A stretch of 53,879 nucleotides of DNA from an uncultured Bdellovibrionales bacterium (GTDB lineage: Bacteria; Patescibacteriota; Minisyncoccia; Moranbacterales; DUUL01): NCBI GenBank assembly GCA_964643985.1, contig CAZXUS010000003.1:1-53879 (forward strand), in the 5' to 3' direction. A program made the translations under genes and the position numbers. Positions within the stretch are counted from its first letter, which is position 1; each line of letters opens with the position of its first letter. Under the pieces are notes generated by a model. It made no database searches. It worked only from the letters and a program-made list of their open reading frames with translations, and was not told where the DNA came from. Positions 4,530 to 52,661 of the stretch are shown in pieces.

Positions 4530-4720
4530 GGGACTGTTTCCAAATACAGTTTTATAGCGAAAAATTAGAATTTTGAGGTAAATTTTTCAAACAATTTTTG
4601 AAGCTTTAGCGTTAGTTAAGGCAATAAAATTTTTGTAAAATTTAACCAAAATTATAATTTTGTCCGCCTCGGCAAGCCTCAGCGAGACGGGCAGTAAAAA
4701 GGGTGTTTGGAAACAATCCC
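4530..4720. mobile_element. MITE-like element, family D (TIR GGGACTGTTTCCAAA), copy 1, carrying a nested 29-bp palindromic insert at 4663-4691
   Basis: Left end is GGGACTGTTTCCAAATAC. The right end TTTGGAAACAATCCC is its inverted repeat. The internal long AT-rich hairpin is shared with copies at 34091, 34476 and 52467. Confidence 0.7.
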
Positions 4721-6863: not shown

Positions 6864-7003
6864 TGTCATTCCCGCTCACATCTTGTCATTTCCGCACTCA
6901 ACTTGTCATTCCCGCTTTAAACTTGTCATTCCCGCGGAGGCGGGAATCCAGAATTTTAAGATTATGACTTCTCCCCCTAGATTCCCGCCTCCGCGGGAAT
7001 GAC
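6864..7003. repeat. Family A array: four 20-bp units (TGTCATTCCCGC+N8), a terminal palindrome GTCATTCCCGCGGAGGCGGGAATCCAG (6925-6951), and an inverted copy (6981-7003)
   Basis: Units start at 6864, 6884, 6904 and 6924. The stem-loop is ATTCCCGC-GGAG-GCGGGAAT. The reverse-orientation copy is ATTCCCGCCTCCGCGGGAATGAC. Confidence 0.85.
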
Positions 7004-7104
7004 AAAGATGTTTTTACTTTTAATTTAGGCTCTTATCTTTTAACTTTTATATTATTGAAATTTTTTTATAAATACCCTATGTTTAAATAAATACCTTAAT
7101 CCTC

Positions 7105-7554: not shown

Positions 7555-7567
7555 AATTTTGAATTTC

Positions 7568-7617
7568 AAATTTTGAATTTTGCTGTGCCTCGCCGTAGCT
7601 TTAGCGAAGGCGGGATT
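7568..7617. repeat. Left arm of a 50-bp inverted repeat flanking ssrA (contains the family B1 core CCTCGCCGTAGCTTTAGCGAAGGCGGG)
   Basis: AAATTTTGAATTTTGCTGTGCCTCGCCGTAGCTTTAGCGAAGGCGGGATT matches the reverse complement of 8404-8453 at 49 of 50 positions. Confidence 0.9.
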
Positions 7618-7791
7618 CAATGTCGAATGAACTAATTTCTTAATTTTTAAATAAAATTTATTTAGAGAATTAAGTCATTAAAAATTGATTAAAAATTCAA
7701 AATTGGAAATTTAAAATTAAGAAAAGCTAATCTTTTTTTAATTTTATTTCCTAAAGATTAACTTTTAATAAAACATTAAACGTGTACCCTC

Positions 7792-8265
7792 GGGGGTGTC
7801 AGGCTTCGACAGGTTAAGTATTTTGAAATTTGCAAGCTGAGTTATATGCCTCATTAAAAGCATATAGGGATTGGCTTTAAGTGTTATTTTGTTTTCAAAA
7901 TTGAAAAGAACATTTAAAGCCAATCCCGAAACCTTATAAGTGCAAACTTATATAACAAAGCAAAAAGTGCGTTAGCATCAGCTTTCACACCCAATTTTGC
8001 TGCTGCCATAGCTTAATATAACCTATGGTCCATCGATTGATCGACTCTCAATAGATCTTATTCGGTGTCAACATTGAGATATAATTAATTTGTTTTCTTT
8101 TGGCAAATTAGTTGAATTCTACAAAAGAGGATTTATTAATTATTTTGTTTGTTTAAAGATTTTTAAATTCTATGGAATTTTATTATTCCTAAAATAAACA
8201 CTCTAAGCTTGTAGACGATTTTAAAATTTTGACACTGGACATGGGTTCAATTCCCATCACCTCCA
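7792..8265 (+). ncRNA. ssrA: tmRNA (SsrA), about 474 nt
   Basis: The 5' end GGGGGUGUCAGGCUUCGACAGG pairs with the 3' end CACCUCC-A. It has a G3:U wobble (alanine identity) and a T-arm GGGUUCAAUUCCC. CCA is not fully encoded. The tag reading frame GCA(7942)..TAA(8016) encodes ANLYNKAKSALASAFTPNFAAAIA. Confidence 0.9.
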
Positions 8266-8403
8266 CAAATTATTTTACTCTCTTAGTAGAGAGTAAAAAA
8301 TTAATTTTTAATTTTTTAATTTTTAATGACTTAATTTTTAATTACGCAAGCTCTGCCTGCGTTCATTGAGACATTGTTTAAAAAATTAAGTAATTCAAAA
8401 TTA

Positions 8404-8453
8404 AATCCCGCCTTCGCTAAAGCTACGGCGAGGCACAACAAAATTCAAAATTT
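8404..8453. repeat. Right arm of the 50-bp inverted repeat flanking ssrA
   Basis: See 7568-7617. Further matching inverted blocks lie at 7671-7687 / 8318-8334 (TTAAGTCATTAAAAATT). Confidence 0.9.
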
Positions 8454-8547
8454 ATAATGCCCTTTGGGTGTAAAATTTCTTTCTGCCATTGCCAAAAACA
8501 TAACTTTTTGATATATTTAATAAAATTTAATAAACTAAACTAAAACC

Positions 8548-10100: not shown

Positions 10101-10165
10101 TTCAACTCTCCGCTTTGTCATCTACAATTCCCGCTTTCATCTTTGTTTTTACTGCTATCGTTTTT

Positions 10166-10190
10166 GTCATTCCCGCGGAGGCGGGAATCC
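10166..10190. repeat. Family A palindrome GTCATTCCCGCGGAGGCGGGAATCC, preceded by decayed CCCGCTTT units
   Basis: Exact match to the core at 6925-6949. Degenerate units are visible from about 10110. Confidence 0.85.
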
Positions 10191-10284
10191 AATTTATCAA
10201 ATAAAATTCAATCCCACCCAAAAAACCCAAAACAAAAAGGCACTGTTCCTCGAACACCACCTTCATAAAATATTTTTTTTAATT

Positions 10285-10768: not shown

Positions 10769-10859
10769 TCATTCCTACTCGCACTCTCAATGAAGCAAAC
10801 ATTGATAACTTTGTCATTCCCGCTCACATTCTGTCATTCCCGCGGAAGCGGGAATCCAG
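10769..10859. repeat. Family A array (GTCATTCC units) ending in the palindrome GTCATTCCCGCGGAAGCGGGAATCCAG (10833-10859)
   Basis: Same architecture as 6864-6951. The track ORF 10621..10827 overlaps it and is probably spurious. Confidence 0.8.
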
Positions 10860-13250: not shown

Positions 13251-13280
13251 TAATTCTAATTCTAATTCTAATTCTAATTT
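13251..13280. repeat. Hexanucleotide microsatellite (TAATTC) x about 5
   Basis: TAATTC repeats at 13251, 13257, 13263, 13269 and 13275 (last copy TAATTT), 11 nt upstream of the RNHCP gene start on the - strand. Confidence 0.9.
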
Positions 13281-13284
13281 TTAC

Positions 13285-13312
13285 CTCTCCCATACACTGG
13301 AGTATGGGAGAG
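13285..13312. repeat. Family F palindrome CTCTCCCATAC-ACTGGA-GTATGGGAGAG
   Basis: 11-bp arms. The same sequence recurs inside miaB at 37125-37150. A degenerate relative lies at about 13755-13790. Confidence 0.85.
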
Positions 13313-13319
13313 ATACTTT

Positions 13320-13769
13320 TCATTTTTCATCCCTCTTATTTTTATAATTATCCAATAAATTAAATATTAGAAAATGAGCTGGAAATTTTTGCTTCATCGC
13401 TTCCCACTCATTGGTCGGCAAAATTTTTCTCCGTTGTTTTTGATTTTTTGCTTCTTTAAACTCATTCATATATCCACCAAAACCACTAAAAAGCCAACGA
13501 TTGACACTTCCAATTGTGCTATTTCCAACTTTCAGTTTCTTTTGTATGTCAGGATAAGAAAAACCCACCAATAACATTTTAGCAATCTCTATTCTATGCA
13601 TTATCATTATAATTTCCCCAGGAGTCAACAAGTCCCTCAAAAATTTTTCTGCATTTTGCTCTGTTTTTATTCTGGAAATCATTCCACAAAATTCCTTCAG
13701 CATTCTCTTCCTTTTTTGTGGATCAACATCATAAAATCTTTTTCTCATTTTTTCTTCACTACCATACAC
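13320..13769 (-). CDS. TrpR-like / YerC-YecD family DNA-binding protein
   Basis: ..FLRDLLTPGEIIMIMHRIEIAKMLLVGFSYPDIQKKLKVGNSTIGSVNRWL.. resembles the YerC/YecD (Trp repressor-related) family. Confidence 0.6.
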   Translation of the reverse strand: MYGSEEKMRKRFYDVDPQKRKRMLKEFCGMISRIKTEQNAEKFLRDLLTPGEIIMIMHRIEIAKMLLVGFSYPDIQKKLKVGNSTIGSVNRWLFSGFGGYMNEFKEAKNQKQRRKILPTNEWEAMKQKFPAHFLIFNLLDNYKNKRDEK

Positions 13770-16605: not shown

Positions 16606-16755
16606 GTCATTCCCGACTTGTTCAGAAATCCAAAAAAGGAAGTCTTTAGTTTAAATTTTCTGGATTCCCGCCTCCGCGGGAATGACAGAATTAGAGGCAA
16701 AAATCAAGAAATTTAGAATAACAATATTGTCATTCCCGCGGAGGCGGGAATCCAG
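16606..16755. repeat. Family A cluster: a degenerate unit (16606-16633), an inverted palindrome (16660-16686) and a direct palindrome (16729-16755)
   Basis: CTGGATTCCCGCCTCCGCGGGAATGAC and GTCATTCCCGCGGAGGCGGGAATCCAG face each other 42 bp apart, just upstream of valS. Confidence 0.85.
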
Positions 16756-16775
16756 ACTTTTATTTTACAAACTTC

Positions 16776-19418
16776 ATGACAACCCTAGCTAAAGCCTACG
16801 AATCCAAAAAACACGAAAAAAAAATTTATGAATATTGGGAAAAATCAGGAAAGTTCAATCCGGATAATTTAGATTTGCCCGAAACTGCCAAACCCTACAC
16901 TATCATTCTTCCTCCTCCTAACATCACCGACAAACTTCATCTGGGACACTCTTCAATGCTAGCTATCGAAGATTTGCTAATTCGCTATCACCGAATGAAC
17001 GGTTTCAAAACTTTATGGCTTCCGGGAACTGATCACGCTGCCATTGCTACTCAAAATGTAGTTGAGAAAAAATTACTCAAAGAAAAAAATCAAACTCGTC
17101 ATGATTTAGGTCGAGAAAAGTTTATGGAAGAGGCTTGGGATTTTATGGAAACCACTCAAGCTACAATTCTTAATCAAACTCGCCGAATGGGAGCTAGTCT
17201 GGATTGGTCTCGTTTAGCCTTCACTTTTGATGAACAACGCCAAAAAGCCGTCGAAAAAATGTTTATTGATATGTATAAAGCCGGTGCGATTTATCGAGGC
17301 GAACGAATGGTAAACTGGTGTCCAAGGTGCCAATCCACCTTAGCCGATGACGAAGTTGAACACAAAGAAGAAAAAGCCAAACTTTACTGGTTGAAATATG
17401 GACCTTTTATCTTAGCTACATCCCGGCCAGAAACCAAATTGGGCGACACCGCTGTGGCTGTCCATCCCGATGATAAAAGATATCAAACGATGATTGGCAA
17501 AGATTATGAAATCAAAGGAGTTTTAGGAAAATTTACTATTAAAGTTGTCGCCGATAAAGTCGTTGATCCTTCCTTTGGTTCTGGCGCCATCAAAGTGACA
17601 CCGGCTCACAGCTTTGTTGATAGTGAAATTGCCCTTCGTCACGATTTACCTTCTAAGAAAATCATTAATGAAGCCGGTAAGATGATGAGTAACTGTGGAA
17701 AATACGCCGGAATGACCGTTCTAGAAGCCAGAGAAGCCATCGTAGCAGATATGCAAGAATTGGGATTAATTGATCATATCGACGAAAATTATCAACACAG
17801 CACTGCGATCTGTTATCGTTGCAATACTATCATTGAACCGCTCCCTTCCAAGCAATGGTTTATTTCTGTTGATAAAAAGCTAGACCGTCTCGACGGAAAA
17901 TCACTCAAAGAAAAAGCGCTGAAAGTTTCTCAAGAAAAACAAATTGAATTTATTCCAAAAAGATTTACCAAACGCTATGAAGACTGGATAGAGAATCTTC
18001 ATGATTGGTGTATCTCCCGTCAAATCTGGCTGGGACATCGAATTCCCGCTTGGCACAAAGATGGCGAAATAAAAGTTCAAACTGAAACTCCCGGTACAGA
18101 TTGGATTCAAGACCCTGATACTTTGGATACCTGGTTCTCTTCTGGAATGTGGACCTTTTCCACTCTCGGCTGGCCCAATAATTTTGAAAATGAAAATAAA
18201 TCTGGAGATTTAGCTGATTTTCATCCCACTCAAGTTTTAAACACTGGCTATGAAATTTTAACTCTTTGGGTTTCCCGAATGATTATGATGTCCCTATTTG
18301 CCGTTCAAGAAATTCCTTTTGAAAAAGTTCATTTACACGGAATGATTTTGGACCAAAATGGCAAAAAAATGAGCAAATCCAAAGGCAACGGAATCGACCC
18401 AATTGATATGATTGATAAATACGGCACTGACGCCGTTCGACTTTCCCTCCTAATTGGAAGCACTGCCGGCAATGATATGAAAATATCCGAAAGAAAAATC
18501 GAAGGTTATCGAAATTTTGTTAATAAAATTTGGAATATTGCTCGATTTGTTTTGAATCGACTAGAAACCGAGAAATTAAATTTTGACAAAAAAATAGCTG
18601 ATTTAAATTCAACCGACTTGACGCTGGCTGATAAATGGATTCTATCAAAAATGCACCGACTTAACTTTGAAATCAGAATTGACATTGAAAATCACGACTT
18701 CTCCACCGCCGGAGAAAAACTTCGGAAATTCACGCGAGAAGACTTTGCGGATTGGTATCTAGAAATTTGTAAGATTGAAAATAATCCTGCTAAACAAATT
18801 ATTTTGACTGAAATTCTGAAAGATTTATTAAAACTTTGGCATCCGTTAATTCCTTTTGTCACTGAAACTATTTGGCAAAAAATAGCCAGCTCAATGTTGA
18901 TGACTGAAACTTTCCCTGAAAAAAATAAATACGAAAAATATTCAGAAAAAGTTGAAGATTTTGACTTGATTAAAAAAATTATAACCATCATTCGAAATGC
19001 TCGAGCTCAATATCGATTAAATCCTCAAGATGAAATAGAAATCATAATCCAAGCCAAAAAGCATTCTGAAAAATTACAAAAAGACCAGATTTTATTAGAA
19101 AAACTAGGCACTTCAGCTAAAAAAATTGAAATAACCGAAACTGGTGAAAAAATTGCTAATGCTTTTTTTGGTCAGGTAAAAAATATTAAAATCTACATCC
19201 CCCTAGAAGGGATTGTCGACTTAAAAAAAGAAACAGAACGATTAAACAACGAAATTGAAAGATTAAAAAATATTTCAAATTCTTTAGAGAAAAAATTAGC
19301 TAATACAAAATTTGTTGATAACGCCCCTAAAGAAATTGTAGAAAAAGAACAAACCAAAAAAGAACAACTAAAAATAAAAATAAAAAATCTTGAAGAACAA
19401 CTCCGAGCAATTAGCTAA
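16776..19418 (+). CDS. valS: Valyl-tRNA synthetase
   Basis: Class I motifs PPPNITDKLHLGH and KMSKS, a CP1 editing region and a C-terminal coiled coil. 880 aa. Confidence 0.95.
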   Translation: MTTLAKAYESKKHEKKIYEYWEKSGKFNPDNLDLPETAKPYTIILPPPNITDKLHLGHSSMLAIEDLLIRYHRMNGFKTLWLPGTDHAAIATQNVVEKKLLKEKNQTRHDLGREKFMEEAWDFMETTQATILNQTRRMGASLDWSRLAFTFDEQRQKAVEKMFIDMYKAGAIYRGERMVNWCPRCQSTLADDEVEHKEEKAKLYWLKYGPFILATSRPETKLGDTAVAVHPDDKRYQTMIGKDYEIKGVLGKFTIKVVADKVVDPSFGSGAIKVTPAHSFVDSEIALRHDLPSKKIINEAGKMMSNCGKYAGMTVLEAREAIVADMQELGLIDHIDENYQHSTAICYRCNTIIEPLPSKQWFISVDKKLDRLDGKSLKEKALKVSQEKQIEFIPKRFTKRYEDWIENLHDWCISRQIWLGHRIPAWHKDGEIKVQTETPGTDWIQDPDTLDTWFSSGMWTFSTLGWPNNFENENKSGDLADFHPTQVLNTGYEILTLWVSRMIMMSLFAVQEIPFEKVHLHGMILDQNGKKMSKSKGNGIDPIDMIDKYGTDAVRLSLLIGSTAGNDMKISERKIEGYRNFVNKIWNIARFVLNRLETEKLNFDKKIADLNSTDLTLADKWILSKMHRLNFEIRIDIENHDFSTAGEKLRKFTREDFADWYLEICKIENNPAKQIILTEILKDLLKLWHPLIPFVTETIWQKIASSMLMTETFPEKNKYEKYSEKVEDFDLIKKIITIIRNARAQYRLNPQDEIEIIIQAKKHSEKLQKDQILLEKLGTSAKKIEITETGEKIANAFFGQVKNIKIYIPLEGIVDLKKETERLNNEIERLKNISNSLEKKLANTKFVDNAPKEIVEKEQTKKEQLKIKIKNLEEQLRAIS

Positions 19419-34090: not shown

Positions 34091-34251
34091 GGGGCTATTT
34101 CCAATCACAATTTTGTTACGAAATTTTTCAATTTTGAGATAAATTATTTAAAAATTTTTGAAGCTTTAATGATAATTAAGGCAAAACAATTTTTAGATAA
34201 TTTATCTCAAAATTGAAAAATTGCAGTAAGAATGGTGACTGGAAACAGTCC
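34091..34251. mobile_element. MITE-like element, family D, copy 2
   Basis: GGGGCTATTTCCAATCAC ... GTGACTGGAAACAGTCC terminal inverted repeats. The internal hairpin is shared with the other copies. Confidence 0.7.
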
Positions 34252-34305
34252 TATTGAACTATTAAATTAATTCTAACACTATACCAAGTTGAAAACAATT
34301 AAGCC

Positions 34306-34333
34306 TTGACAATTTATCCATTCATTCTAAAAT
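34306..34333 (+). promoter_or_regulatory. Promoter of the thrS leader (TTGACA-16-TAAAAT)
   Basis: TTGACA at 34306-34311 and TAAAAT at 34328-34333. Confidence 0.6.
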
Positions 34334-34475
34334 ATCATTAGTACTTGTGGCGATTGGCGTATCCACCAAATACGCATCTTTTAAAAGATTGAGAGATTAT
34401 TCTCCGCTAAACCAAGCAAATTTTAAAGAGTCTTAGTTTTAAAAACTAGGGAATCTAAGTGGAACCGCGATAAAA

Positions 34476-34638
34476 GGGACTGTTTTCAAACATTGTTTTG
34501 TTGTGAAAAGCTAGAATTTTAAGATAAATTTTTCAAATAATTTTTGCAGGACTAGCAAATCGCTAATTCAAAAAAATTTTTGAAAAATTTAGCTAAAATT
34601 ATAGTTTTGCAACAAAAAGAATGTTTGGTAATAGTCCC
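34476..34638. mobile_element. MITE-like element, family D, copy 3, inside the T-box antiterminator loop
   Basis: GGGACTGTTTTCAAACATT ... AATGTTTGGTAATAGTCCC. Confidence 0.7.
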
Positions 34639-34642
34639 AAAT

Positions 34643-34697
34643 AAACCTCGTCTTAGAAATTGTTCAATTTTTGAACTATTTTTGAGATGAGGTTTTT
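34643..34697 (+). terminator. T-box leader terminator
   Basis: AAACCTCGTCTTAGAAA pairs with TTTGAGATGAGGTTT (three G-U pairs on the + strand only), with an inner GTTCAA/TTGAAC helix and a T-run. Confidence 0.8.
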
Positions 34698-34710
34698 ATG
34701 TTTAAAAAAA

Positions 34711-34790
34711 ATCATCGATCACCAGTCATCGGCTATCGGCAACTGTTTAGAATAGCGCTCGATAACCAATTACTGATTACTGATGACCAG
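34711..34790. repeat. Family G imperfect palindrome (..GATCACCAGTCATCGG .. ACTGATTACTGATGACCAG)
   Basis: Shares an exact 16-mer (GTCATCAGTAATCAGT, reverse complement of 34772-34787) with 47770-47785. Confidence 0.75.
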
Positions 34791-34826
34791 ATTTATAAAT
34801 AATTTTTAATAAATTAATATATCTTT

Positions 34827-36593
34827 ATGAAAAACGACAAAAAAAAGAAAAAGCTCCAATTATTACGTCACAGCACTGCTCACATTTTGGCCACCGCTGT
34901 TTTAAAATTTTTCCCAGAAGCCAAATTTGCAATTGGTCCATCCATCGAAAATGGTTTTTATTATGATTTTGAACTTCCCCGTCCTTTAATTCCAGAGGAC
35001 TTGCCGTTATTAGAAGCCGAAATGAAAAAAATCATCAAAGCCAATTTTGCCTTTGAACAAAAATTAGTTCCCAGCCAAGAAGCTTTGGCTAAATTCAAAA
35101 AACTCGACCAACGATTCAAAGTCGAATTAATTGAAGATTTGATTAAAGAAAAAAATTCAGAAGTTAGCCTCTACAAATTGGACGGTTTTATTGATTTATG
35201 TAGCGGACCTCACATTGAATCTTCCGGCGAAATTGACCCTCAAGCTTTCAAATTGACCACAATTTCCAGCGCTTATTGGCGCGGCGATGAAAAACGAGAA
35301 AGTTTACAAAGAATTTACGGAACAGTTTTTGAAAATAAAGCCAATCTCAAAAAACATTTATTCGAAATGGAAGAAGCCAAAAAACGAGACCACCGAAAAC
35401 TTGGAAAAGATCTTGATTTATTTTGTTTTTCCGATTTAGTTGGACCTGGACTTCCTCTCTACACTCCCAAGGGAACTATTATTAAAGAAGAATTGCAAAA
35501 ACACATTGAAAGTGTTTGCAAAAAATATGGATTTCAGAAAGTCTCTACTCCCTCTCTAGCCAAACCTGAACTTTTTGAGATTTCTGGACATGCTAAAAAA
35601 TTTGGTGATGAATTATTTCACGTCACTTCTGAAAAAAAACACGATCTTGTTTTAAAACCAGTTCAATGCCCTCATCAAACTCAAATCTATGCTTCAAAAA
35701 ATAGATCATATAAAGATCTCCCTATAAGATATATGGAATCTGACAAACAATATCGAGCAGAAAAAACAGGTGAAGTTGGAGGACTATCCAGAGTTTATGC
35801 GATTACCGTCGAAGATGGTCATTCATTTTGTCGAGTCGATCAGATAAAAGAAGAAATAGAAATAATGGTTAATATTATCAAAGATTTCTATGGCAATTTA
35901 GGTCTTTGGGGTAATCACTGGGTTTCTCTCTCAGTTAGAGATTATGATCATCCAGAAAAATACATTGGCGACACAAAAGATTGGGATAAGTGCGAATCAA
36001 TGTTGGAATTAATTTCTAAAGAAATGAAATTAGATGCAAAAAAATGTGAAGGAGAAGCAGCCTTATATGGTCCAAAATTAGACTTCATGTTTAAAGATGC
36101 CACCGGAAGAGAAATACAAATTCCAACTATTCAATTAGATTTTGCAACTCCCAAAAAATTCGGTTTATTTTATATAGACGAGACAGGAAAAAAAGTTCCT
36201 CCGGTAATGATTCATCGAGCAATCCTTGGTTCATACGAAAGATTGCTGGCTCTTTTGATAGAACATTTCGCAGGCGCTTTCCCTTCTTGGTTGGCACCAG
36301 TTCAAGTGGCCTTACTTCCAGTTTCTAAAAAATTCAATGATTATTCTCAAAAAATTGCAGAAGCATTAGAAAAAGCTGAGATTCGAATCGAAACTCCTGA
36401 TGCAAACAACTCTCTTGGAAAAAGAATCGCCGAAACTACCAAACTTAAAGTCCCTTACATTTTAATTATGGGAGAAAAAGAAGAGAAAGAAGATACCGTG
36501 ACGATTAGAAAAAGGGGTCAGAAAGAGCAAGAAACTCTAAAAATCGCTGCTTTTGTGAAGATGATTAAAAAAGAAATTACTAAAAAAATTTAG
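34827..36593 (+). CDS. thrS: Threonyl-tRNA synthetase (no N-terminal TGS domain)
   Basis: Starts at the editing-domain motif RHSTAHILA, with a class II catalytic core and an anticodon-binding domain. 588 aa. Confidence 0.95.
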   Translation: MKNDKKKKKLQLLRHSTAHILATAVLKFFPEAKFAIGPSIENGFYYDFELPRPLIPEDLPLLEAEMKKIIKANFAFEQKLVPSQEALAKFKKLDQRFKVELIEDLIKEKNSEVSLYKLDGFIDLCSGPHIESSGEIDPQAFKLTTISSAYWRGDEKRESLQRIYGTVFENKANLKKHLFEMEEAKKRDHRKLGKDLDLFCFSDLVGPGLPLYTPKGTIIKEELQKHIESVCKKYGFQKVSTPSLAKPELFEISGHAKKFGDELFHVTSEKKHDLVLKPVQCPHQTQIYASKNRSYKDLPIRYMESDKQYRAEKTGEVGGLSRVYAITVEDGHSFCRVDQIKEEIEIMVNIIKDFYGNLGLWGNHWVSLSVRDYDHPEKYIGDTKDWDKCESMLELISKEMKLDAKKCEGEAALYGPKLDFMFKDATGREIQIPTIQLDFATPKKFGLFYIDETGKKVPPVMIHRAILGSYERLLALLIEHFAGAFPSWLAPVQVALLPVSKKFNDYSQKIAEALEKAEIRIETPDANNSLGKRIAETTKLKVPYILIMGEKEEKEDTVTIRKRGQKEQETLKIAAFVKMIKKEITKKI

Positions 36594-36752: not shown

Positions 36753-37865
36753 ATGAAATATTTTATCCGCACTTTCGGTTGTCAAATGAATTTCTCCGAT
36801 TCCGAACGAATGGCAACTTTTTTTGAACAAAATAATTTTGAACCAGCCGACAAAATCGATCAGGCTGATTTAGTGATTTTCAACACTTGCGGAGTGCGCC
36901 AAATGTCCGAACACAAAGTCTACGGCCACGTTCACAATGTTTTTAAAAAAGACCCCCAAAGAAAAAAAATTGTAGTTGTCACCGGCTGTCTCGCTCACCG
37001 CGAAGAATTTCGAAAACGACTAGAAAATAAAGTCGATTTATTTTTACCCATCAAAGACTTCCCTAAAATATTAAAATTAATCGAAAAAAACAAAACTCTT
37101 TTAAAAAAATTAAAAGCAACTAAGCTCTCCCATACACTGGAGTATGGGAGTGAAGAAAATTGCTATCTTAAAATAAAGCCCAAGTACGAGAAAAAGGAAT
37201 CCGCTCTCGTGCCAATTATGACCGGATGTAATAATTTCTGCACTTATTGCATTGTTCCCTACGCCCGCGGACCTGAATGGTCTCGACCTTTTAAGGAAAT
37301 TCAAACAGAAATTAAAAAACTATGTCCTTACACGTGTAAGGACATATGTAAGGACATAACTCTGCTAGGACAAAATGTAAACTCTTACCGAGATAACGAA
37401 ATTTCCTTCCCGATCCTGCTAAACACTCTAGCCAAAGAATTTCCCAAAATAACTTTCAGATTTCTCACTTCTCATCCCAAAGATTATTCCGATGAACTTA
37501 TCAACGTCATTGCTCAAAACAAAAATATTTCCCGTCAAATTCATCTGCCAATTCAAGCCGGCAGTGACAAAATCCTCAAAGCGATGAACCGCCCTTACAC
37601 TCAAAAATATTATTTAAACCTCATTAAAAAAACTCGAGAAAAAATTCCGGAGGCTAAAATCTCCACCGACGTAATTGTCGGTTTCCCTGGAGAGTCCGCA
37701 GAAGATTTTCAAGAAACCGTCAAAGTTTTTAAAGAAGTTAAATTCTCCGAAGCCTTCCTTAATAAATATTCCCCCCGTCCCGGCACCGCCTCTTTCAATC
37801 TCAAAGACAACATTTCTTTGGATGAGAAAAAAAGAAGAGAACAAGAATTAAGAAAATATTTCTAA
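36753..37865 (+). CDS. MiaB/RimO-family radical-SAM methylthiotransferase lacking a TRAM domain
   Basis: N-terminal FGCQMNFSDSE..NTCGVR and radical-SAM CNNFCTYCIVPYARG. The ORF ends at ..EKKRREQELRKYF, right after the core. It contains two palindromic repeats (37125-37150 and 37322-37357). Confidence 0.8.
   Translation: MKYFIRTFGCQMNFSDSERMATFFEQNNFEPADKIDQADLVIFNTCGVRQMSEHKVYGHVHNVFKKDPQRKKIVVVTGCLAHREEFRKRLENKVDLFLPIKDFPKILKLIEKNKTLLKKLKATKLSHTLEYGSEENCYLKIKPKYEKKESALVPIMTGCNNFCTYCIVPYARGPEWSRPFKEIQTEIKKLCPYTCKDICKDITLLGQNVNSYRDNEISFPILLNTLAKEFPKITFRFLTSHPKDYSDELINVIAQNKNISRQIHLPIQAGSDKILKAMNRPYTQKYYLNLIKKTREKIPEAKISTDVIVGFPGESAEDFQETVKVFKEVKFSEAFLNKYSPRPGTASFNLKDNISLDEKKRREQELRKYF
37125..37150. 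repeat. Family F palindrome inside the miaB-like CDS
   Basis: CTCTCCCATACACTGGAGTATGGGAG is identical to 13285-13310 and is read in frame as ..LSHTLEYGS.. Confidence 0.85.
37322..37357. repeat. Perfect 24-bp palindrome ATGTCCTTACACGTGTAAGGACAT plus a 12-bp tandem copy, inside the miaB-like CDS
   Basis: Read in frame as ..LCPYTCKDICKDI.., at the position where family members usually carry a short helix before ..ITLLGQNVNSY. Confidence 0.8.
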
Positions 37866-37937
37866 ATTCAATTTACAATAAACCAATTTACAATTTATAA
37901 TAAATTTTCAATTATTTAATTTTCAATTTCCGCAAAG

Positions 37938-38857: not shown

Positions 38858-39032
38858 TTAAAATCCCTCCTTAATTAAGTTAATAAAAACCACCTAAAAA
38901 TATTTTCTCAATAAATCAAGTTATTGTCAATCTCTAGCAGCACAAACTCAAAACCTTTCTTCTTATCGGATTTCGATATTCGAAAGCCATTGAAAATTAA
39001 ATCATTGAAAATTGATTGTAAATTGAAAATTG

Positions 39033-46809: not shown

Positions 46810-46883
46810 AGGACTGTTTCTAATCACTCTTTTTACTGTAATTTTCCAATTTTGGTAACAAAATTGCAATTAAAAACGGTCCC
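46810..46883. mobile_element. Short (74-bp) internally deleted relative of the family D MITE-like element
   Basis: AGGACTGTTTCTAATCAC ... AAAACGGTCCC retains both ends of the family. Confidence 0.5.
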
Positions 46884-52466: not shown

Positions 52467-52627
52467 GGGACCAAGTTTGAATACAATTTCGTAATGAAAT
52501 TTTAAATTTTTGAGGTAAATTATTCAAATAATTTTTGAAGCACTGGCCATAGTCAATGTAATAAAATTTTTGTATAATTTAGCCAAAAATTTTAGATTGA
52601 ATAGAAAGAGTATTTAAATTTAGTCCC
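52467..52627. mobile_element. MITE-like element, family D, copy 4
   Basis: GGGACCAAGTTTGAATAC ... GTATTTAAATTTAGTCCC, with the shared internal hairpin (..TTTTGAGGTAAATTATTCAAATAATTTTTGAAGC..). Confidence 0.7.
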
Positions 52628-52661
52628 AAGACAAAAAAATTTACTAAATTTTTAAGTCTCA

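Follow-up and report, generated by a model that had tools for sequence, protein, structure and literature searches.

A compact T-box leader ahead of thrS in a Moranbacteria-like bacterium, with a palindromic repeat in its antiterminator that is probably tolerated

The window, i.e. the whole stretch of DNA analysed here, comprises 53,879 nt of the + strand of contig CAZXUS010000003.1 (GCA_964643985.1). It carries thrS, encoding threonine--tRNA ligase, behind a promoter and a leader with an intrinsic terminator, and inside this leader lies a 163-nt palindromic repeat of which further copies are dispersed over the window. Judging by its ThrS, whose nearest relatives (69-73% identity) come from metagenome-assembled genomes of Candidatus Moranbacteria and Parcubacteria, the host is a Moranbacteria-like bacterium of the Candidate Phyla Radiation (CPR). 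Comparison with 160 related loci, referred to below by L-numbers, allowed us to confirm on comparative sequence grounds that positions 34341-34703 are a real, unusually compact T-box predicted to control thrS, and structure predictions suggest that it is probably a working T-box in which the repeat is tolerated.

Architecture of the thrS leader

The leader and its surroundings contain the following features.

34306-34333, + strand: sigma-70-type promoter, TTGACA (34306-11), 16-nt spacer and TAAAAT (34328-33)
34341-34703, + strand: T-box leader of thrS
34357-34375, + strand: ultrashort stem I, GCGUAU-CCACCAA-AUACGC, a 6-bp helix with a 7-nt apical loop
34365-67, + strand: specifier ACC in the apical loop of stem I, with the conserved purine A next to it at 34368
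34376-34425, + strand: middle region, the equivalent of stem II and IIA-B, with small hairpins and the F-box-like CCGCUAA (34404-10)
34426-34453, + strand: discriminator entry, with the purine string AAGAG (34426-30), a 9-bp stem III (34431-51) and AA (34452-53)
34452-69, + strand: T-box sequence AAUCUAAGUGGAACCGCG, by direct reading
34454-34470, + strand: T-box 5' strand, with A1 UCUAAG (34454-59), bulge UGGAACC (34460-66) and A2 GCGA (34467-70)
34471-75 and 34639-47, + strand: internal-loop residues flanking the element, UAAAA and AAAUAAACC
34476-34638, + strand: palindromic repeat element of 163 nt in the apical loop of A2, with termini GGGACTGTTT...AGTCCC
34648-34657, + strand: antiterminator 3' strand, with A2 UCGU (34648-51) and A1 CUUAGA (34652-57)
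34643-34697, + strand: intrinsic terminator, a stem of 18+6 bp (three of the pairs G-U) with a U-run behind it
34827-36593, + strand: thrS, threonine--tRNA ligase (TIGR00418, 632.8 bits, E = 6.5e-190)

The promoter, proposed with these coordinates in an initial annotation made from the sequence alone, is the top promoter-like site between 34050 and 34900, with 11 of 12 positions matched. Three related loci (L004, L014 and L144) carry TTGACA and TAAAAT or TAAACT, 17 nt apart, at the same distance from stem I as in the window. Transcription would start at about 34340, and stem I begins some 16 nt after this presumed start. Downstream of the terminator and ahead of thrS, a regional scan found no promoter-like site.

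Stem I is short, with a 6-bp helix and a 7-nt loop. The long form, which has a K-turn, an AG bulge and a distal platform for binding the tRNA elbow, is absent; class III T-boxes lack it as well, so its absence does not disqualify the leader. Compensatory changes occur at all six pairs of stem I, and about 30 relatives have this hairpin too. The ACCA of its loop is invariant in the aligned leaders (13 of 13) and contains a threonine codon, matching the regulated gene. The initial annotation had hesitated between the ACC in this loop (34363-69) and a second ACC at 34411-13. The latter lies within a CUAA-N stretch and is replaced by other bases in relatives, and because it is not conserved while the loop ACCA is invariant, the question is settled in favour of 34365-67. 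At the position of the middle region, relatives show the arrangement hairpin-hairpin-CUAA(A/G). In L013 the Rfam alignment places the corresponding part at the IIA/B and F-box positions, and a pseudoknot is evident there on reading. In the window CCGCUAA likewise follows a small hairpin, and the AT-rich sequence leaves the folding of stem II or of a pseudoknot ambiguous. Stem III is present in the minimum free energy (MFE) folds of the leader.

In the antiterminator, A1 is a perfect 6-bp helix between UCUAAG and CUUAGA, and A2 is a 4-bp helix between GCGA and UCGU that is formed across the insert. The base of A2 is a G34467-U34651 wobble, and G-U is found at that pair in 10 of 13 leaders. The bulge UGGAACC fills the 7 nt between A1 and A2 and is invariant in relatives. 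The antiterminator 3' strand is contained in the 5' arm of the terminator, making the two structures mutually exclusive, a design shared by all 11 relatives tested. The terminator folds with -27.6 kcal/mol (z = -9.1) on the + strand and with -16.5 kcal/mol on the - strand, the weaker fold of the latter being due to the three G-U pairs. On direct reading, the A1 pairing, the bulge and the mutual exclusion thus hold where the initial annotation had placed them. Its A2 helix stands as well, with an extent of 4 bp instead of the 3 bp (GCG) given there, and its terminator retains the U-run, the three G-U pairs and the preference for the + strand, but with an outer stem of 18 bp rather than 17.

Comparative evidence for a T-box

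Searched with the Rfam T-box model (RF00230) at its gathering threshold of 93 bits, neither the window, where only tmRNA and tRNA-His were reported, nor 19 relatives gave a T-box. With the same model in E-value mode the window scored 18 bits (34328-34490, E = 0.096), in an alignment that was correct for the 5' half of the T-box but had its 3' half forced into the start of the element; the score is low because the antiterminator is split by the insert. All ten related leaders searched in this mode were matched, with 27.5-54.4 bits and E-values from 3.7e-9 to 0.03, and what keeps these scores below threshold is the absence of 74-90 model positions belonging to the long stem I. A covariance model, R1, was built from 12 related CPR thrS leaders with the window excluded. 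R1 matched 34352-34491 with 64 bits (E~1e-11) as the only strong match in 54 kb, the next scoring 12.8 bits, and it found 33 leaders among the 160 related loci.

When the element (34476-34638) is left out, the leader is colinear with those of L144, L004 and L014 through the antiterminator, so that the sequences on either side of the element, proposed in the initial annotation to be the halves of one antiterminator, are contiguous in these orthologous leaders. L144 has an identical A1 (UCUAAG/CUUAGA), an A2 of GCGAGA/UCUCGU and a loop of 18 nt. Applied to the alignment of 13 leaders, RNAalifold recovered a 6-bp stem I, a 6-bp A1 and a 4-bp A2, with compensatory changes at 13 of the 16 pairs. 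Across these three helices 97.6% of the cells were paired, compared with 37-49% when the partner columns were slid. The covariation score was 0.861, compared with 0.12-0.23 in the controls, and none of 500 shuffles reached it. For the motif RTGGNACCRC the window has two occurrences, with 0.2 expected. Moreover, the discriminator signatures defined in PMC7583486, namely a basal G-U wobble in A2 and RRRxG-stem III-AA, are all present, as G34467-U34651 and AAGAG-stem III-AA, together with UGGAACC. The claim that the leader is a T-box is in this way borne out by the R1 match, by the relatives' matches to RF00230 and by the covariation of stem I, A1 and A2.

Many related thrS genes have GGUGGAACCGCG 100-130 nt upstream, with a short ACCA-loop hairpin before it and a short antiterminator loop and terminator after it. 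These compact leaders occur across the CPR (Moranbacteria, Parcubacteria and Saccharimonadia; loci L002-L161, e.g. L004:2778-2915, L013:2805-2934 and L144:1637-1786) and share a stem I of 6-8 bp, a loop of 7-9 nt (YYACCAA or ACUCACCAA), UGGAACC and an intrinsic terminator. At L003, L005, L083 and L164, thrS has no T-box.

Cognate tRNA and proposed mechanism

The bulge reads UGGA in all identified CPR thrS leaders (~50). Within the window there is no tRNA-Thr gene. The acceptor end called for by UGGA in the initial annotation was seen in relatives, that is, in other genomes than the window's: L164, a 902-kb contig with a ThrS 69% identical, encodes a tRNA-Thr(GGU) with acceptor stem GCCGUUG/CAACGGC and U73, and three Saccharimonadia (L059, L061 and L065) encode a tRNA-Thr(CGU) with U73, L065 itself bearing a UGGA T-box. 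As a side observation, a tRNA-Val gene adjoins thrS in 33 related loci (ARAGORN), and in Saccharimonadia it lies directly upstream of the leader on the opposite strand.

In the mechanism that we propose, transcription of the leader would begin at about 34340 and stem I would display ACC in an apical loop resembling an anticodon loop, where it could base-pair with tRNA-Thr through the anticodon GGU. Within the bulge, UGGA would pair with the 3'-UCCA end of the uncharged tRNA and thereby stabilise the antiterminator (A1 and A2). With charged tRNA, the terminator would form instead and transcription would end ahead of thrS. A member of the repeat family would have landed in the apical loop of A2 and would zip into its own hairpin, which would prolong A2 coaxially and be closed by an internal loop of 5x9 nt.

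The inserted repeat and its family

Besides the copy in the leader, the window holds four further members of the family.

34091-34252, + strand: second family copy, 54 nt upstream of the thrS promoter
4530-4720, + strand: family copy between rpmE and prfA, with a nested 29-nt GC-rich insert
52467-52640, + strand: family copy between a convergent rhodanese-domain gene and the enolase gene
46810-46883, strand not assigned: mini copy of 74 bp that keeps only the family termini, between divergent nrdR-like and LigB-family genes

The four full copies and the mini copy are all intergenic. The copies at 4530, 34091 and 52467 had been named in the initial annotation and proved to be real family members, to which the mini copy is now added. 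Identity between full copies is 64-76% ungapped and ~79% by BLAST, and with ~65-79% identity between copies the family looks old. The pattern GGGACTGTTT, allowing up to one mismatch, occurs 10 times in the window (3.0 expected). The element in the leader is 78% self-complementary over its full length and is predicted to form a single long RNA hairpin (-60.4 kcal/mol, z = -10.8), in line with the earlier suggestion that it folds on itself.

The copies at 34091-34252 and 34476-34638 have the same orientation and lie 385 bp apart, with the thrS promoter and two-thirds of the leader, counted from its 5' end, between them. The nested 29-nt segment of the copy at 4530-4720, TCCGCCTCGGCAAGCCTCAGCGAGACGGG, is missing from the other copies; as rpmE and prfA are co-directional, an mRNA probably includes this copy, too.

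ERIC/IRU, Correia elements, RUP and other MITE-like repeats (MITE, miniature inverted-repeat transposable element) are nearly full palindromes of ~100-200 bp with conserved termini, intergenic and multi-copy, without an open reading frame (ORF), and they are transcribed within mRNAs, where they are able to fold as hairpins of untranslated regions (UTRs). The element in the leader has comparable traits, being small, flanked by terminal inverted repeats, dispersed in multiple copies and free of ORFs. Unlike such repeats, the family in the window has old copies and shows neither a consistent target-site duplication nor a cognate transposase: at 34476-34638 a duplication AAA|AAA is possible, which may be due to chance in AT-rich DNA, the flanks of the other copies are inconsistent, and none of the 22 window ORFs scanned against family profiles is a transposase. 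Searches for a known RNA family gave only chance miRNA-like matches far below threshold. Of the designation 'MITE-like element' in the initial annotation, the dispersed palindromic repeat family therefore stands, and 'MITE-like palindromic repeat' is a fair description, whereas 'MITE' is a structural resemblance and not demonstrated, because no consistent duplication and no transposase were found. The element may have arrived by transposition.

Does the insert break the switch?

With 34476-34638 removed, the element-free junction of the leader reads GCGATAAAATAAACCTCGT. In folds of the full leader the element forms an independent hairpin, and the terminator is part of the MFE structure both with and without it. 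The energy needed to enforce A1 and A2 is 22.0 kcal/mol in the presence of the element and 21.1 kcal/mol in its absence, a change in the gap of ~0.9 kcal/mol; a second calculation gave 22.6 and 21.7 kcal/mol, within the 7-23 kcal/mol spanned by 11 relatives of the same design. Prefix folds showed the T-box strand in the same pairing state before the element is transcribed and after its completion, and the regional scan reported no terminator-like site inside it. The insert is thus predicted to be nearly neutral thermodynamically for the competition between the two conformers and, since this competition is essentially unchanged, the switch most likely still works, with regulation presumably operating in vivo. 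The initial annotation had considered both a tolerated extension of A2 and an inactivated switch; folding of both conformers favours the former, as far as predicted energies go.

Loops of A2 have a median length of 8 nt among ~50 non-redundant leaders, and that of the window, at 177 nt, is the largest. Long and largely palindromic inserts in the same loop were found in L009 (59 nt), L095 (71 nt), L089 (79 nt) and L094 (80 nt). In the Moranbacteria locus L089, the same 35-nt GC-rich repeat (97% identical) occurs twice, once in place of stem III and once in the loop of A2 (1425-1459 and 1527-1561). L052 has a 159-nt hairpin in the loop of stem III (2440-2598) whose 24-nt termini are 92% complementary and whose core is ~75% identical to the window family.

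Several observations weigh against a working T-box with a tolerated insert. The match of the window to RF00230, at 18 bits, is far from the gathering threshold of 93. A2 is limited to 4 bp, a U/C mismatch taking the place of the fifth pair of the relatives, although this length is still among the 3-10 bp that relatives show. The terminator is favoured by ~22 kcal/mol, towards the upper limit of the range. RNA polymerase reaches the decision point 239 nt after the bulge, compared with 66-90 nt in compact leaders, and this longer distance could alter the kinetics of the switch, while the ~75-bp duplex of the element could be a target for RNase III. An element-free allele was not found, the only other contig with the same ThrS in an exact-protein look-up being identical and the nearest other ThrS among 5.8 billion proteins and two contig collections being 73% identical, so the 'empty site' rests on distant orthologous leaders.

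It would be conceivable that the switch is a relic, in which the insert has disabled or strongly weakened antitermination through misfolding or delay and thrS is expressed by leakage through the terminator or from an unseen promoter. The reduction of A2 to 4 bp with its mismatch at the fifth position, the strongly favoured terminator, the exceptional size of the loop and the four relatives whose thrS has no T-box, indicating that this regulation is dispensable in the group, would all fit such a loss. Against it, the conserved core (6-bp A1, G-U wobble, UGGAACC, purine string and ACCA loop) has remained intact despite the age of the repeat family, a strong terminator has been kept ahead of an essential gene with no promoter-like site after it, the element is predicted to shift the energy balance by just ~0.9 kcal/mol, and four other leaders have independently received long inserts at the same loop. 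We consider a relic unlikely. That the resemblance to a T-box is due to chance, and the leader an ordinary 5' UTR with a repeat and a terminator-like hairpin, would agree with the failure to match Rfam at the gathering threshold, but the homology, the covariation, the 64-bit match from an independent model and the excess of RTGGNACCRC make this extremely improbable, and we regard it as effectively refuted by the comparative data.

The element might also have been co-opted, either to lengthen the time available for tRNA capture by a stem I without platform or, as a cleavage site for RNase III, to govern how stable the read-through mRNA is. Missing from these leaders is the platform that contacts the tRNA elbow and makes capture faster in transcriptional T-boxes (PMC7583486), long hairpins are present in A2 of ~10% of them, and cleavage of the S. 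aureus met T-box leader by RNase III is known (PMC7913692). Most leaders of the class, however, manage with loops of 3-30 nt and hence do not need an extension, the inserts of different genomes are unrelated sequences, and members of the same family occupy ordinary intergenic sites of the window. Co-option is in our view very unlikely. A broader version, in which the CPR thrS leaders would be an undescribed, terminator-coupled class with an ultrashort, class-III-like stem I and no platform for the tRNA elbow, and in which long self-folding repeats at the tips of A2 and stem III would be more than tolerated, acting as kinetic spacers that allow the slow-binding tRNA more time until RNA polymerase arrives at the terminator, appears distinctly doubtful to us. 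Among these possibilities a working T-box with a tolerated insert remains the probable one.

Relation to known systems

The closest architecture is that of the class III T-boxes, translational ileS switches of Actinobacteria with a short stem I and the specifier in its apical loop (PMC10482949), as in Nocardia farcinica and Mycobacterium tuberculosis (PMC10482949, PMC7583486). As in class III, the leader in the window has a short stem I without the double T-loop platform, a specifier displayed in the apical loop with a purine behind it, and an F-box-like element. The discriminator core is identical, comprising the UGGN bulge, A1 and A2, the G-U wobble and a stem III flanked by purines. The leader differs in its expression platform, where an intrinsic terminator, 130 nt ahead of the start codon, replaces the Shine-Dalgarno sequestrator, in its specificity (Thr, ACC, versus Ile), in the size of the loop (7 nt versus 5-6 nt), in its minimal or ambiguous stem II and in its host, CPR/Patescibacteria versus Actinobacteria. 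With the Firmicutes thrS/thrZ T-box (RF00230) it shares the gene, the logic, the T-box sequence and the terminator/antiterminator switch, but not the long stem I, the AG bulge and the distal platform.

Transcriptional T-boxes generally need a long stem I with an elbow-binding platform for fast tRNA capture (PMC7583486). The combination of a platform-less stem I with an intrinsic terminator, viewed in the field as kinetically unfavourable (PMC7583486), suggests that these leaders form at least an unusual class. Our searches for T-boxes in CPR, Patescibacteria or Saccharibacteria found no report within the limited searchable literature. The comparison presented here indicates that T-boxes are widespread ahead of thrS in CPR/Patescibacteria, in a compact form that is missed at the Rfam threshold. 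Annotation pipelines should accordingly allow large loop insertions and include a CPR-specific model.

Functional insertions on A2 are on record, in the form of the staphylococcal glyS stem Sa (PMC9177973) and of a general remark in PMC7583486. Stem Sa, like the insert in the window, is a lineage-specific extra hairpin on A2 of a transcriptional T-box, and the stem Sa T-box works (PMC9177973, PMC4574755). It is, in contrast, short, conserved in the genus and contributes to function, whereas the insert in the window is a 163-nt copy of a dispersed repeat seen in one genome. For repeat elements or MITEs inside antiterminators, we found only unrelated papers, again within the limited searchable literature. 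What makes the leader noteworthy is therefore a natural 163-nt insert at the heart of the switch, in a compact, terminator-coupled CPR class and at a helix, A2, for which insertions have precedent. It could be seen as a natural experiment in insertion tolerance, in which a selfish repeat sits inside the decision hairpin while all functional contacts are predicted to be kept. Together with the four leaders with long A2 loops and L052, it would mark the tips of the discriminator helices as safe harbours for mobile or palindromic DNA.

Other features of the locus and the window

Between terminator and thrS lies a spacer (34698-34826) of 130 nt, compared with roughly 30-60 nt in the compact relatives that were read (e.g. 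L004). Its G+C content is above that of its surroundings, it occurs once in the window and it forms a modest hairpin (-22.8 kcal/mol, z = -2.1). We rejected it as a repeat copy, given that it is unique in the window and folds weakly. There is no obvious Shine-Dalgarno sequence ahead of the ATG of thrS.

The window contains several other repeats. A second family, TGTCATTCCCGCGGAGGCGGGAATCCAG, is found at 6864-7015, 10144-10192, 10811-10859 and 16647-16756, arranged both in tandem and as inverted copies; one pair closely precedes valS (16776-19418), and repeats of the same kind are present between terminator and thrS in L144 and L095. Inverted repeats of 81 nt (7563-7643 and 8378-8458), 88% complementary and separated by 734 nt, lie on either side of the tmRNA gene (7792-8268). 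CTCTCCCATACACTGGAGTATGGGAGAG palindromes form an inverted-repeat pair at 13276-13325 and 37112-37161, and a 44-nt inverted pair (37884-37927 and 38989-39032, 91% complementary) flanks ~1 kb downstream of miaB.

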